Origin: Deltaproteobacteria bacterium
GTDB taxonomy: Bacteria; Desulfobacterota; Binatia; UBA9968
Assembly (NCBI GenBank): GCA_016874755.1
Contig: VGTH01000009.1
Coordinates: forward strand, 4,933-68,932
Direction: 5' to 3'
Length of the DNA stretch: 64,000 nt
Shown here one piece after another: positions 53,152 through 57,379 of the stretch. How positions within the stretch are numbered: the stretch's first letter is position 1; the number at the start of each line of letters is the position of its first letter. The position numbers were made by a program, and so were the translations under genes. The notes beneath the pieces were generated by a model, which was given only the letters and a program-made list of their open reading frames with translations, made no database searches and was not told the origin of the DNA.

Positions 53152-54756
53152 ATGCGTGCAGTAGCGGAGGTAAAGTGTATTCGCTTTTCTATTTCTGCAG
53201 CCTTGGTTTACGTTGCTGACAACAATGAAGCCGCAACGGAGTCAACGATTGCGAAACAAGCTGTTTCACTATTTGTGAGGCAAGGTTTTCGCCCAAGCAT
53301 CAGTTGGCGCAGCTCGCGGGCGACCGGCTGTTTGAATGCGACTTTCTATGCGTCGGAAAGCGAGCAACTAGACAGGGTTCTAGGTTTGAGCAACGGGCTC
53401 GATCCCGAGTTCGTCGCCAAGACCGCGGTCTATTGCCGCGAGCAAAGCCTCATGAAGGACATGCCGGCGCTGTTGTGCGCGTCGTTGTCGACTCGCGACA
53501 CTGAGTTGATGCAGGCAACCTTCGTTCGTGTCATCGACAACGGCAAGATGCTGCGCAACCTCGTGCAGATCCTGCGCTCTGGCGCCGTCGGTCGGAAGTC
53601 TTTGGGCACGGCGCCTAAGCGTCTGGTGCAAAGCTGGTTCGACCGTCAAGATGAGAGCGACTTGTTCCGCGCCGCCATCGGGCAGGATCCGTCCATCGAA
53701 GATGTGATCAAGATGGTGCATCCGAAGCCGAAGACTGAGGAGCAGGAAGCTCTGTACGGCTACCTGTTGGGGCGTTCGCACGATGCTGAGTCGCTGCCGG
53801 CTGTAGTTCGTGCGTGCGAGGCTTTCAAGGCGGGTGATACCACCGAGGTTCCCGACGTGCCGTTTATGAAGTTGACCGCGGTGGACTTGAGCGATTTGGC
53901 TTGGAAGAAAATCGCTGAGCGCGCTTCATGGCAGACCACCCGCATGAACTTGAACACCTTTGCTCGCCACGGCGTATTTGCCGATGCGGCTTTGGTGGAA
54001 AGGATCGCGGCGCGCTTGCGCGATCCGAAAGCGATCCGCAAGGCGCGGGCATTTCCGTATCAGTTGATGGTGGCCTACACCACGGCCGATGCAGCAATTC
54101 CTGGAGCGATCCCCGAGGCGTTGCAGGACGCCATGGAAGTGGCGATCGCAAACGTGCCCTGCTTCGCCGGCAAGGTCTACGTCTGCCCGGATGTGTCGGG
54201 TTTGATGTCGAGCGCGATCACCGGCTACCGCAAGGGTGCAACCAGCGCCGTGCGGGCGATCGATGTCGCGGCGCTGGTCGCCGCCGCGGTGGTGCGCAAG
54301 AATCCGTCGGCGGCGGTCTTGCCCTTTGAGCAGGACGTCGTGCCGTTGGCGCTCAACCCGCGCGATAGCGTGATAACCAATGCGGCCAAGCTCGCTGCCA
54401 TCGGCGGCGGTGGGACCAACTGCAGCGCGCCGTTGGCGCAGTTGAACGAGCGCAAAGCCAAAGGTGATCTGGTGATCTTCGTCTCCGATAACGAGGCGTG
54501 GATCGACGCAGGCCATGGCCGCGGCACAGCAACGATGGCCGAGTGGCAGCGCTTCAAGGCGCGCAACCCGGCGGCAAAGTTGGTCTGCATCGACTTGCAG
54601 CCGTACGCCACGACCCAAGCGCAGGAGCGCGCAGATATTTTGAATATCGGCGGCGGCTTCTCGGATGCGGTATTCGACGTGATCGCGCGCTTTGCGCAAG
54701 GTTCACTGAACGCCGATCATTGGGTCGGTGAGATCGAAGCCGTGAGTTTGAATTAA
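53152..54756 (+). CDS. rsr: Ro60-related protein Rsr (TROVE domain + C-terminal vWA/MIDAS)
   Basis: 534 aa; TROVE core (...LVQSWFDRQDESDLFRAAIGQDPSIEDVIKMVHPKP...), vWA with DVSGLMSS MIDAS motif; Deinococcus-Rsr-like length. Confidence 0.85.
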   Translation: MRAVAEVKCIRFSISAALVYVADNNEAATESTIAKQAVSLFVRQGFRPSISWRSSRATGCLNATFYASESEQLDRVLGLSNGLDPEFVAKTAVYCREQSLMKDMPALLCASLSTRDTELMQATFVRVIDNGKMLRNLVQILRSGAVGRKSLGTAPKRLVQSWFDRQDESDLFRAAIGQDPSIEDVIKMVHPKPKTEEQEALYGYLLGRSHDAESLPAVVRACEAFKAGDTTEVPDVPFMKLTAVDLSDLAWKKIAERASWQTTRMNLNTFARHGVFADAALVERIAARLRDPKAIRKARAFPYQLMVAYTTADAAIPGAIPEALQDAMEVAIANVPCFAGKVYVCPDVSGLMSSAITGYRKGATSAVRAIDVAALVAAAVVRKNPSAAVLPFEQDVVPLALNPRDSVITNAAKLAAIGGGGTNCSAPLAQLNERKAKGDLVIFVSDNEAWIDAGHGRGTATMAEWQRFKARNPAAKLVCIDLQPYATTQAQERADILNIGGGFSDAVFDVIARFAQGSLNADHWVGEIEAVSLN

Positions 54757-54767
54757 CTTTAACCGGG

Positions 54768-54827
54768 GCTGAATGCAGTCGAAACTACATTTGCGACATG
54801 TTCTGTCTCGACGACAAACTTGTCAGC
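54768..54827 (+). ncRNA. Short Y-RNA-like element (stem only, no tRNA-like insert), 12 nt after rsr stop
   Basis: GCUGA-AUGCA-GUCGA...UCGAC-GACAAACUUG-UCAGC: same two-helix / asymmetric-loop architecture as the two downstream elements with compensatory helix changes. Confidence 0.4.
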
Positions 54828-54840
54828 TCCGATAAACCCA

Positions 54841-54875
54841 GGGCGACCCACCGGTCGCCCCCACGAAAATCGTGG
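54841..54875. repeat. REP-like palindrome GGGCGACCcaccGGTCGCCC plus adjacent CCACGAaaaTCGTGG hairpin
   Basis: Same palindrome family as 26670-26689, 40491-40510, 50827-50846 and (reverse orientation, compensatory G>A/C>T) 54953-54973. Confidence 0.6.
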
Positions 54876-54988
54876 CGCCGAATGCTGTTGGGATTACATC
54901 ACAACCCTAGTACGGATGTCTCAACAAAAACTTGTCGGCCCAGAAACTTGTAGGGGCAACCGGCGGGTTGCCCTCAGGGATGCACGTA

Positions 54989-55096
54989 GCGAATGCCGAA
55001 GATAACTACATGGGTCGCGGGTTCGACTCCCCCTGGCTCCGTCAAACGGGCCATAGCTCAGCGGGAGAGCAATGTTTCCTTCAACAATTTGTCGCC
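54989..55096 (+). ncRNA. yrlA: YrlA-like Y RNA with circularly permuted tRNA-mimic domain
   Basis: T-arm GCGGG-UUCGACU-CCCCC (55017-55033), loop-closed acceptor-like stem UGGCUCC/GGGCCA, UA, D-arm GCUC-AGCGGGA-GAGC (55056-55070), 5-nt variable loop GGGUC, flanking ACAU/AUGU helix and GCGA..GAAG / CUUC..UCGC outer stem; lies between rsr and rtcB. Confidence 0.65.
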
Positions 55097-55150
55097 ACTA
55101 AATGCGGTTAGAAAGAATGGTGCGAAAAGCGATAGAATATTGAAACTAGC

Positions 55151-55270
55151 GGCGAATGCCGAAGCAACTGCATGGCCTCGCGGGTCTTCGGGTGCAAGTC
55201 CTGAAGCGCAGTCAACTGCGCTAGCTCAGGACAGAGCAACGAGAAAACGCTTCTTCAAGAACTTGTCGCC
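55151..55270 (+). ncRNA. Second, more degenerate Y-RNA-like element with tRNA-like D-arm and extended T-arm analogue
   Basis: Same termini as element 1 (GGCGAAUGCCGAAG ... CUUCAAGAACUUGUCGCC), D-arm GCUC-AGGACA-GAGC preceded by UA and loop-closed helix CGCAG-ucaa-CUGCG, 7-bp stem CUUCGGG-UGCAAGU-CCUGAAG. Confidence 0.5.
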
Positions 55271-55285
55271 GCCCGTGGGGGAAAT

Positions 55286-56514
55286 ATGTCAGAGAGCAAC
55301 TACAACCTGATTCAGCCAGAGAATGGCGTGCCCATCAAGGCCTGGACCAAGGGCGTCGCCATTGAAGGTTCAGCGGAGAAGCAGCTGCGCAACGTCGCGA
55401 CCATGCCGTTCGTCTACAAATGGGTGGCGGCGATGCCGGACGTGCATTGGGGCATCGGCGCTACTGTAGGGAGTGTGATCCCCACCAAAGGCGCGATCAT
55501 CCCAGCCGCCGTCGGCGTCGATATCGGCTGCGGCATGATGGCGGTGCGAACAACGTTGAACGCCAGCCAACTGCCAGACAACCTGCGCAGCGTGCGCTCG
55601 GCAATTGAAAAGGCGTGCCGCACGGACGCACCAACAACGGGCGCAAGGGCGACCGCGGCGCGTGGGGCGAAATCCCCAAGCGCCAGATCGGCGTGTGGCG
55701 CCAGCTCGAGATGGGCTACAAAGCGATCACGGAAAAGTATCCAAACTTAGATCGCGGCAATGATGTGAATCACTTGGGCACCCTCGGCACCGGCAACCAC
55801 TTCATCGAAGTGTGCCTGGACGAAAGTGACCGGGTTTGGTTCATGCTCCATAGCGGGTCACGCGGCGTCGGCAATCGCATCGGGACCTTTTTCATCGATC
55901 TGGCGCGCAACGATATGCGCAAGCATATCGCGAATCTGCCGGATCGCGACCTCGCTTACTTCGAAGAAGGCAGCGAGCACTTCGAAGACTATGTGGATGC
56001 CGTGCACTGGGCGCAGGAGTTTGCCATGTACAACCGTAAACTGATGATGGAGCAGCTGGTCGAAGCGGTGGAAAATTGCCGCGAGCTGCCGGAGTTTTCA
56101 CTGACTGAAACGGCGGTGAATTGCCATCATAACTACGTCGCCCGCGAAGAGCACTACGGCCATGCCGTGTTCGTCACCCGCAAAGGCGCGGTGCGCGCCG
56201 GCAAGGGCGACATGGGGATTATCCCCGGCAGCATGGGGGCGCGCTCGTACATCGTGCGCGGCCTCGGCAATCTCGAGAGCTTCGAAAGCTGCAGCCACGG
56301 CGCCGGCCGCGCCATGTCGCGCAACGAAGCCAAGCGCCGTTTTACGATTGACGATCACATCAAAGCCACTGCTGGCGTCGAATGCCGAAAAGACGCCAAT
56401 GTTATCGACGAAACCCCAATGGCGTACAAGAACATCGACGATGTCATGAACGCGCAGAAGGATTTAGTCGAGATTGCGCATACGCTGCGGCAGGTGGTGT
56501 GTGTGAAAGGATAG
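55286..56514 (+). pseudogene. rtcB: RNA-splicing ligase RtcB, reading frame broken by 1-nt deletion near 55612 (or sequencing error)
   Basis: ORFs 55286-55750 and 55615-56514 together give a full-length RtcB (..AIEKA|VPHGRTNNGRKGDRGAWGE.., HLGTLGTGNHFIEVCLDE.., SCSHGAGR..); expected GCG GTG CCG is GCG TGC CGC. Confidence 0.8.
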
Positions 56515-56612
56515 GCTTGAGGCGCGAGTTGAAAGGATGAAAGATGAAAGCGGAAGTATGAAAGAAGAGTTCGGACAATTCCACCTTCATAATTCCGCTT
56601 TCATAATTATTT

Positions 56613-57379
56613 ATGTTGGTTATCGACGGTTCCTACCACGAAGGCGGCGGGCAGATTCTGCGCACCGCGTTGACGCTCAGTCGCGCGACGCGCACGCCGT
56701 TTCGTATCGAAAAGATTCGCGCCGGTCGCAAGCGGCCGGGGCTGTTGCGCCAGCATCTGGCGGCGGTGAGGGCCGCGAGAAGGTCTATTTGCCGGTGCTA
56801 CACCGTATCGGCACGAACATTCAATGCGAACTGCTCAAGGCGGGATTCTATCCGGCAGGCGGCGGCGCGATGACAGTTGCTATTCAACCCGCCGCTCAGT
56901 TGAAATCGCTCGATCTGACCCAGCGCGGCCAAGTGCGCCGCAAGCTCGCGCGCGCGCTGGTGGCCAACCTGCCGCGCAGCATCGGCGAGCGCGAGCTTGC
57001 CGTCATCGCTAAAAAGTTCGCGCTGACGCAGGACGAAGTAAGAGTCGAACATGTTTCGTCACCGGGTCCGGGTAATATCGTCATGTTGGAAATCGAGAGC
57101 GACCGCGTCACCGAGATTTCCACTGGTTTCGGCGAGCTCGGCGTGCGTGCGGAAACCGTAGCGGAACGCGCCTGCGCCAAGGCGCGGCGCTATCTGGCGT
57201 CGAGCGCTCCCGTTAGCGAGCATCTGGCGGATCAGTTGCTGTTGCCGTTGGCCTTAGCGAAAGGCGGCGTGTTTACCACCCTGCCGTTGTCAGCGCATAC
57301 CAGGACGAATATCGATACGATTAAGAAATTTCTCGCGACCAAAATTCATGTCCGCGAAGCCAGCGCGGGCACCTGCTGA
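56613..57379 (+). pseudogene. rtcA: RNA 3'-terminal phosphate cyclase RtcA, internally deleted (~95 aa) and frameshifted
   Basis: N-terminus [23 protein letters not shown]...[17 protein letters not shown] in one frame (56613-56770), C-terminal 2/3 ([12 protein letters not shown] ... ) in another (to 57379); total ~255 aa vs ~340 expected. Confidence 0.7.

Follow-up and report, generated by a model that had tools for sequence, protein, structure and literature searches.

Probable recently inactivated remnant of a canonical rtcR/rsr–Y RNA–rtcBA RNA-repair operon

Organization of the locus

Within a 64-kb stretch of DNA from a Deltaproteobacteria bacterium (64,000 nucleotides of contig VGTH01000009.1; hereafter, the window), the gene for the Ro60 protein (rsr), a spacer with Y RNA-like modules, rtcB and rtcA lie on one strand at 53152–57379 (Table 1). 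This locus is probably the recently inactivated remnant of an RNA-repair operon with the canonical arrangement rtcR / rsr–Y RNA array–rtcB–rtcA. The literature (PMC4201824, PMC7790460) already documents a wide distribution of the rsr–Y RNA–rtcBA module across diverse bacteria, and the locus is a decayed example of this known kind of system, not a new system type. An earlier note on the same DNA had placed here an open reading frame (ORF) for a TROVE+vWA Ro60 protein, followed on the same strand by a spacer of about 530 bp, rtcB and rtcA, and had recognized in this the gene order of the Salmonella rsr–yrlBA–rtcBA operon. This layout is borne out by Pfam and NCBIfam matches, by YrlA models and by the synteny of the closest relatives.

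These relatives are the loci L004–L008, whose Ro60 proteins are 77–83% identical to that of the window (protein P0002 of L004, 83%; P0004 of L005–L008, ~80%). Their gene order is a divergent rtcR, rsr (518 aa), a 390–450-nt spacer with Y RNAs, rtcB and rtcA. The rtcR gene carries RtcR, Sigma54_activat and AAA_lid domains, and upstream of rsr lie a sigma-54-type promoter, TGGCA(C/T)-N5-(C/A)TGCT, and a GGAGG ribosome-binding site. Complete copies of rtcB (409 aa) are present in L005 and L006, while the contigs of L004, L007 and L008 end inside the gene; rtcA is unbroken as far as the contigs go, its 3' end lying beyond every one of them. Because L004–L008 keep rtcR, and keep rtcB and rtcA uninterrupted over the reach of their contigs, the window appears to have lost or broken all three genes secondarily. 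The earlier note had listed the missing RtcR and the disrupted rtc genes as differences from the proteobacterial paradigm; both observations hold, but the relatives, which share the rsr–Y RNA–rtcB–rtcA order and also have rtcR, identify the window as a decayed copy. The absence of RtcR would then be a secondary loss that does not imply a lineage-specific architecture, and we infer that the regulated rtc operon is gone from the window.

By analogy with Salmonella and E. coli, RtcR of the ancestor, a CARF and sigma-54 activator protein, would have sensed tRNA fragments with 2',3'-cyclic phosphate ends and fired the sigma-54 promoter, giving a transcript with four products: the RNA-binding ring protein Rsr; a number of Y RNAs that would bind Rsr via a conserved basal stem, two of them with a tRNA-like domain; RtcB, which would join 3'-phosphate or 2',3'-cyclic phosphate ends to 5'-OH ends; and RtcA, which would cyclize 3'-phosphate ends. 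In the window, rtcR, the promoter and rsr codons 1–30 have been taken out by a deletion or replacement, and a +1 insertion shifts rsr codons 31–41, so that an ATG of unrelated upstream sequence is now in frame with the remaining rsr body. The window further shows a 1-nt deletion in rtcB, a 232-nt deletion in rtcA, and stem-breaking mutations in one of the two tRNA-like Y RNAs.

Table 1. Features of the rsr–Y RNA–rtcBA locus, in window coordinates
Feature	Position	Strand	Basis or remarks
rsr (Ro60; TROVE+vWA) ORF	53152–54756	+	534 aa
Non-homologous 5' leader of the 534-aa ORF, in place of rtcR, the sigma-54 promoter and rsr codons 1–30	53152–53284	+	relatives' homology starts at 53285
Remnant of rsr codons ~31–41 (FSPKHQLAQLA), wrong frame	53285–53319	+	three-frame translation
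rsr body, family residues ~42–518 (TROVE ring and vWA), in frame with upstream ATG	53320–54756	+	tblastn, Pfam
Spacer with four Y-RNA-like modules	54757–55285	+	529 bp
M1, stem-only, YrlB-like long hairpin	54766–54832	+	R1 29.9 bits, E 4e-6; Rfam YrlA 19.9 bits, tRNA-like part deleted
GC-rich hairpin GGGCGACC-CACC-GGTCGCCC, upstream of M2	54841–54860	+	-16.8 kcal/mol, z -4.7
M2, stem-only	54875–54944	+	R1 40.9 bits, E 4e-9
Second GC-rich hairpin GGGCAACC-GGCG-GGTTGCCC, downstream of M2	54954–54973	+	fold and motif scan
M3, YrlA-like with T-arm and D-arm mimic, degraded	54986–55101	+	Rfam YrlA 56.8 bits, E 4e-12
Putative internal promoter of the sigma-70 type (TAGAAA-18-TAGAAT); 10 nt separate its end from M4	55109–55138	+	consensus scan; weak inference
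M4, YrlA-like, second tRNA-like module, largely intact	55149–55275	+	Rfam YrlA 33 bits, E 3e-5
rtcB pseudogene	55286–56514	+	Pfam RtcB matches in two fragments; 1-nt deletion
Palindrome with 28-nt arms in rtcB–rtcA spacer	56544–56604		inverted repeat I4, 82% complementary
rtcA pseudogene	56613–57379	+	Pfam RTC matches in two frames; internal deletion

Lesions in rtcB and rtcA

As the earlier note had anticipated, profiles for both Rtc enzymes find matches in the locus, each split over two frames. The RtcB profile (PF01139) is matched by one fragment at 55286–55750 (profile positions 1–110) and by another at 55615–56514 (positions 139–426), and no full-length RtcB match in a single frame occurs in the window. 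Alignment to the rtcB of L005, with which the gene is otherwise colinear, places the lesion between 55614 and 55615, where one nucleotide has been lost and GCGGTG has become GCGTG. When one G is added back, a full 409-aa ORF results, and rtcB has no second lesion. Judged in this way, RtcB from the window locus would almost certainly be dead.

The enzyme could in principle still be made if the ribosome underwent a programmed -1 frameshift, or the polymerase slipped, at GAAAAGGCG, in which case only rtcA would truly be dead, and a short A run (AAAA) does lie immediately upstream of the shift site. We regard this as exceedingly improbable, given that no canonical X XXY YYZ slippery heptamer is present, that the shift is not conserved, as the relatives encode RtcB in one frame at the exact site, and that the adjoining genes are independently damaged.

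The damage to rtcA is larger. A complete RTC domain with RTC_insert in one frame is absent from the window; the segment 56613–56873 corresponds to RTC positions 1–52 and the segment 56537–57379 to positions 126–221 plus RTC_insert, so that positions ~53–125 are missing. Relative to L005, this is a net 232-nt internal deletion at 56777–56782, by which ~77 codons are gone and the frame is shifted. The breakpoint placed by blastn (window 56780/56782 versus L005 10995/11229) agrees with the block alignment. With such a lesion, RtcA from this locus would certainly be dead.

In addition to the palindrome in the rtcB–rtcA spacer (Table 1), a palindromic element resembling a repetitive extragenic palindrome or miniature inverted-repeat transposable element (REP/MITE), with arms of up to 34 nt, lies at 52247–52334. 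In either orientation, it shows ~77–78% identity to the element at 10734–10814 of L005, which lies in the rtcB–rtcA spacer of that relative.

Loss of rtcR, the sigma-54 promoter and the 5' end of rsr

Using a relative's RtcR as the tblastn query, we found no RtcR homologue at E ≤ 1e-3 in the whole 64-kb window. Neither the adjacent divergent rtcR nor the sigma-54 promoter, both of which are present in L004–L008, occurs in the window. Upstream of rsr, the plus strand has no sigma-54 promoter of the form TGGCAC-N5-TTGCW within 2 mismatches, and matches to the sigma-54 motif across the window are as frequent as expected by chance. No relic of rtcR or of the sigma-54 promoter was found on either strand of 52340–53284. 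Inversion of the rsr promoter and 5' end onto the minus strand was also considered and rejected, as this same region, whichever way it is turned, bears no nucleotide or protein likeness to rtcR, the promoter or the start of rsr in the relatives.

The 534-aa ORF is matched by the Pfam families vWA_Ro60 (PF25045; E 8e-16) and TROVE (PF05731; E 5e-6 with 26.3 bits, where the cutoff is 23; residues 251–311 only), and P0002 aligns to the window by tblastn with 83% identity over 489 aa. It misses the threshold of the NCBIfam Rsr equivalog NF041674 (68.9 bits against a cutoff of 900), and the window Ro60 thus appears to represent a different subfamily from that curated equivalog. Homologues of this Ro60 number in the thousands, nearly all of them 517–522 aa long with a conserved N-terminus (MANKNLF...APAY...LAQ). 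A complete rsr frame with this N-terminal segment is not present in the window. In both blastn-type comparison and global alignments, nucleotide homology to the relatives' rsr starts only at 53285. The codons that follow encode FSPKHQLAQLA in the frame starting at 53052, while the 534-aa ORF uses the frame starting at 53050; the segment is out of the ORF frame because of one extra G, relative to L004, in the GGG run at 53318–53320. As a result of the 5' loss and this frameshift, the first 57 residues of the 534-aa protein are unrelated to Ro60. The ORF would accordingly encode a fusion whose product is predicted to lack family residues 1–41.

These 41 residues hold 13 near-invariant positions, a density of 0.32 compared to 0.38 in the remaining protein. 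The structure of Deinococcus radiodurans Rsr (PDB 2NVO), which aligns to P0002 over family residues 28–501 (E 1e-21), places the lost N-terminal segment opposite its structured residues 35–48. Within the body of the protein, five deviations from near-invariant columns are observed, among them the replacement by Leu of the second serine of the DxSxS motif of the metal ion-dependent adhesion site (MIDAS) (S351L; codon 54202–54204), which is part of DVSGSM in 119 homologues. Finally, no Shine–Dalgarno (SD)-like GGAGG precedes the ATG at 53152, while the relatives have GGAGG upstream of rsr. The earlier designation of this gene as a Ro60 orthologue is therefore correct as to family but not as to intactness, the damage to the 5' end having escaped that note. 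Taken at face value, these features suggest that the window Rsr is probably non-functional.

On the minus strand, a near-consensus sigma-54 promoter, TGGCAACGCTCTTGCT, is found at 53101–53086, pointing away from rsr to a small neighboring ORF. This ORF (52874–53041) begins with the signal-peptide-like sequence MKIVRVLLMGLFVSAQA and overlaps a 142-aa ORF at 52501–52929 in another frame; the two may be another frameshifted gene.

Y RNA array of the spacer

The Y RNAs of the window are visible only with E-value thresholds or with a purpose-built model, as Rfam at gathering thresholds and ARAGORN each gave 0 matches over the whole window. We built a covariance model, R1, from seven YrlA-like sequences, with M1 and M2 remaining outside the seed. 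R1 detects exactly four modules in the window (M1–M4), all in the spacer, 10–520 nt downstream of rsr and on the rsr strand. The earlier note had proposed tRNA-like RNA modules here, in agreement with the matches to Rfam YrlA (RF02553), which fall below the gathering score of 69 bits, and with the tRNA-like domain that M3 and M4 show in R1.

An array of four modules is ordinary for the family. Across 84 sources, R1 yields 221 modules, with up to 7 per locus; every one is on the strand of rsr, and nearly all follow this gene directly. In the family alignment A3, which was itself fitted to the covariance model, 96.3% of cells are paired and 26 of the 27 pairs show compensatory changes, compared to 32–54% in slid controls. 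This points to strong covariation support for the predicted Y RNA structure in these uncultured lineages.

Within the array, M1 is conserved in L004, L005 and L007. Compared to L004, M1 and M4 are 85% and 90% identical, respectively, versus 56% at 4-fold degenerate sites of rsr, and the Y RNAs therefore appear to have been under purifying selection. M4 folds well (-52.8 kcal/mol, z -2.8) and has 2 broken model pairs versus 0 in its orthologues, which score 46–50 bits with Rfam YrlA. M3 is the degraded module: its orthologue in L005 reaches 76.2 bits (as does that of L008), above the Rfam YrlA gathering score, and M3 itself scores ~20 bits lower. Five of its 27 model pairs are broken, the most of any among 97 full-length modules. 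Among these are an A.C mismatch in the basal stem for Ro binding, due to a G-to-A change at the first G of GNCGAAN0-1G, and a C.C mismatch in the T-stem. Its predicted fold (-31.2 kcal/mol, z -0.05) is no steadier than that of shuffled sequences, versus -47.9 kcal/mol and z -2.5 for the orthologue.

M2, whose minimum free energy fold is a Y-like hairpin (z -2.0), is absent from L004, L005 and L007, and the GC-rich hairpins that flank it are likewise absent at this place from L004 and L005. The segment that includes M2 (54842–55101) is represented by 79 nt in L004, and the 149 nt at 54831–54980 by 46 nt in L005. That M2 is a recent duplicate of M1 is unlikely, as the two sequences, read by eye, share little beyond the family consensus. 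The hairpin motif occurs without mismatch only at the two sites flanking M2 (0.11 expected), and L004 has one copy after its last Y RNA. No intrinsic terminators were found on the plus strand of the locus, and the hairpins are not classical terminators because they lack a T-run. For the candidate promoter between M3 and M4, both hexamers are kept in L004 and not clearly in L005; across the sigma-70 consensus scan, the number of matches equals the chance expectation.

Given three sound modules, the array might have outlived its protein partners, being retained and transcribed, perhaps from the putative promoter at 55109–55138, for a role independent of Ro and Rtc (such as tRNA-mimic decoys for anticodon nucleases), or it might work with an N-terminally remodeled Rsr. 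We consider such a scenario quite unlikely.

Reality and age of the lesions

From 43152 to 64000, the window is 100% identical to locus L001, a JGI contig of 82 kb (3300020193 / Ga0194131_10000299). The corresponding IMG dataset, 3300020193, belongs to a depth-profile study of Lake Tanganyika (PMC8245535). Two Logan assemblies (SRR7053297, SRR7990526) are 100% identical over 50893–56787 and 50893–55548, and a contig from a second JGI sample, Ga0194121_10145858, is 100% identical over 54481–55861. No intact rtcB allele was found: a pattern allowing either state met the frameshifted form only. As the same alleles recur in several Lake Tanganyika metagenome assemblies, the lesions are real alleles and not sequencing errors.

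Sequencing or assembly artefacts, with genes that are intact in the organism and indels and deletions that are errors or chimeric joins, are thus a very improbable explanation. The rtcB and rsr lesions are indeed single-base indels in short G runs, and the end of Logan contig L002, at 56787, falls 5 nt beyond the junction of the rtcA deletion, which might reflect strain heterogeneity at this deletion. However, at least four JGI and Logan contigs, one of them from a second JGI sample, carry the same sequence. Neither a 232-nt deletion nor the total absence of rtcR can be a base-calling error, and the search permitting either state returned no intact allele.

Branch-specific substitutions give an indication of age. 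The ratio of nonsynonymous to synonymous changes in rsr is 10:41 on the window branch versus 12:47 on that of L004, and rtcB has 16 branch-specific amino-acid changes in the window versus 13 in L005. Because the counts on the window branch are not raised, the lesions appear to be recent. Long-term relaxed selection on this branch finds no support in the branch counts of either gene.

Several points weigh against a recently inactivated operon. The rsr body is still an uninterrupted 479-codon frame joined to an ATG, and a truncated or remodeled Rsr could still be made, because the rsr branch shows no excess of amino-acid change. M1, M2 and M4 are structurally nearly intact in their folds and model pairs. 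Many related genomes have rsr and Y RNAs without rtcR, rtcB or rtcA nearby, a combination that can evidently work without Rtc. A second, intact copy could exist elsewhere in the genome. As to the recurrence of the alleles, some of the assemblies may share raw reads, the clearly independent samples being two (Ga0194131 and Ga0194121).

Part of this evidence would also fit a pared-down, functional and RtcR-independent Rsr–Y RNA module, in which only the Rtc enzymes have been discarded, the rsr body with its new N-terminus still forms a ribonucleoprotein, and transcription comes from read-through or an internal promoter. Besides the open frame of 534 codons, the unraised nonsynonymous rate, the good folds of M1, M2 and M4, the candidate promoter at 55109–55138, and the ~40 related genomes with rsr and Y RNAs but no rtcR or rtcBA within 6 kb, such a module is favored by the +1 insertion itself, without which the rsr frame has no start codon after the upstream stop. 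We nevertheless consider it unlikely. All 13 near-invariant N-terminal residues are gone, together with the stretch that lines up with the first structured element of Rsr, and none of the 119 natural family members, all 508–567 aa in length, lacks this N-terminal segment. No SD or promoter precedes 53152, the MIDAS serine is a Leu, and M3 is degraded. As rtcB is also without a second lesion, an open frame is equally expected of a very recent pseudogene. We therefore favor recent inactivation of the whole operon.

Comparison with known systems

The best-studied counterpart is the rsr–yrlBA–rtcBA operon of Salmonella enterica with its divergent rtcR (Chen et al. 2013/2014; Hughes et al. 2020, PMC7790460). 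The window shares with it the order of rsr, Y RNAs, rtcB and rtcA on one strand, as well as the presence of both stem-only and tRNA-like YrlA types, and the closest relatives of the window further match it in having a divergent CARF/sigma-54 RtcR and a sigma-54-type promoter. The window differs in lacking rtcR and the promoter, in the truncated 5' end of rsr, in the frameshift of rtcB and in the internal deletion of rtcA. It also has four Y modules, compared to two in Salmonella, and its Ro60 subfamily differs.

When compared to the Rfam YrlA family (RF02553; Chen et al. 2014, PMC4201824), the modules share the basal stem GNCGAAN0-1G / CUUGUCGCC, the T-arm-like GGGUUCGAnUCC hairpin, the D-arm-like UAGCUCA...GAGC hairpin and the placement immediately downstream of rsr. 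The window copies nevertheless score below gathering (56.8 and 33 versus 69 bits), and M3 has a mutated first G in the motif and 5 non-canonical pairs. In structure, M4 conforms to the YrlA type and M3 has a tRNA-like domain with 5 broken pairs, whereas M1 and M2, which have no tRNA-like domain, resemble YrlB.

Deinococcus radiodurans Rsr (PDB 2NVO) likewise combines a TROVE ring with a vWA domain carrying a MIDAS, and several Y RNAs (Yrn1–Yrn2) adjoin its gene, as in the window family. In contrast, its locus is unlinked to rtcBA, its Y RNAs lie upstream of rsr, and the N-terminal element corresponding to Rsr residues 35–48 is missing from the window protein. With the rtcR / rtcBA system of E. 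coli, the window shares adjacent, co-oriented genes for the RtcB ligase and RtcA cyclase, and the relatives share RtcR control; E. coli, however, has neither rsr nor Y RNAs, and in the window both enzymes are pseudogenes.

The locus is of wider relevance as a caution, in that an apparent RtcR-independent form of the Ro60/Y RNA/Rtc system is here probably a fresh pseudo-operon, and the 534-aa Ro60 protein of public catalogues a fusion artefact of gene decay. It also places the canonical rtcR–rsr–Y RNA–rtcBA arrangement in uncultured relatives of a probably Binatia-like bacterium. Naturally occurring alleles, from intact to decayed, might help to show which parts of the system are dispensable in pelagic freshwater life.

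Ro60 loci in related genomes

We surveyed 80 species-level genome loci with this Ro60 subfamily. In 37 of the 80, a divergent rtcR lies immediately upstream, and many of these have rtcB and/or rtcA downstream, while the remaining loci (about 40), mostly from Pyrinomonadaceae, have rsr without an rtc gene within 6 kb. Scanning genome contigs with the window Ro60 yielded no species with greater than 72% identity. The iPGM of the window (20184–21731) is 79–83% identical to proteins of metagenome-assembled genomes (MAGs) labelled "Deltaproteobacteria bacterium" and "Candidatus Binatia bacterium", which fall in one 90% cluster. On this single housekeeping marker, the uncultured source bacterium from the water column of Lake Tanganyika is probably Binatia-like.

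Among the 80 loci, rsr is commonly followed by a tandem array of two to seven Y-RNA-like modules, across MAGs labelled Acidobacteriota, Verrucomicrobiota, Planctomycetota and Myxococcota. The longest, with five to seven modules, are found in L029 (7623–8529), L078 (4608–5910), L082, L020, L024, L041, L053 and L062, from Verrucomicrobiota, Planctomycetota and other MAGs. Characterized species have about one to two Y RNAs, fewer than in such arrays.

In many Pyrinomonadaceae/Acidobacteriota MAGs, rsr and the Y RNAs lie directly downstream of a co-oriented tRNA array of up to ~33 genes and ~4.5 kb. This arrangement (array at ~1000–5950, rsr at 6001–7554) is seen in L018, L021, L027, L032, L042, L043, L046, L050, L056, L062, L066, L070, L071, L079 and L086; a tRNA array upstream of rsr also occurs in L009–L014, L016, L019, L036, L049, L052, L057 and L073. 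Truncated contigs contain fewer tRNA genes. The order of the array is broadly kept, Tyr-Trp-Ser-Ser-Arg-Gln-Leu...Cys, a gap, and Phe-Val-Thr-Arg-Met-Ala...Ile-Gln; in L027, the gap contains an HNH endonuclease gene (4214–4774). Within 6 kb, rtcR, rtcB and rtcA are all missing from most of these loci; L073 has an rtcA-like match far downstream. The arrays look like the horizontally spread "L-array" tRNA operon (PMC8421152), here joined to Ro60 and Y RNAs, and a full-text literature search returned no paper naming both "tRNA array" and "Ro60". Furthermore, a 380-aa RtcB-like gene that is 49–50% identical to the operon RtcB lies ~2 kb upstream of rsr in L028, L031, L034, L037, L060 and L061, and in L028, L031, L037 and L060 it is located within a short tRNA array.

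Neighboring gene fragments and repeats

Downstream of the operon, between an esterase gene and the next gene, the minus strand of 58671–59146 holds three short overlapping ORFs, one of which begins with MQIIDADGHV and by eye resembles the starts of amidohydrolase-2 enzymes. This suggests a further gene remnant beside the decayed operon. Neither these fragments nor those at 52501–53041 gave a significant Pfam match.

The window also contains dispersed intergenic repeats, which have no Rfam match at gathering. The longest is a 263-bp pair at 40339–40601 and 50675–50937 (90% identical), and shorter pairs lie at 24326–24413 and 50952–51038 and, in inverted orientation, at 532–588 and 40660–40714.

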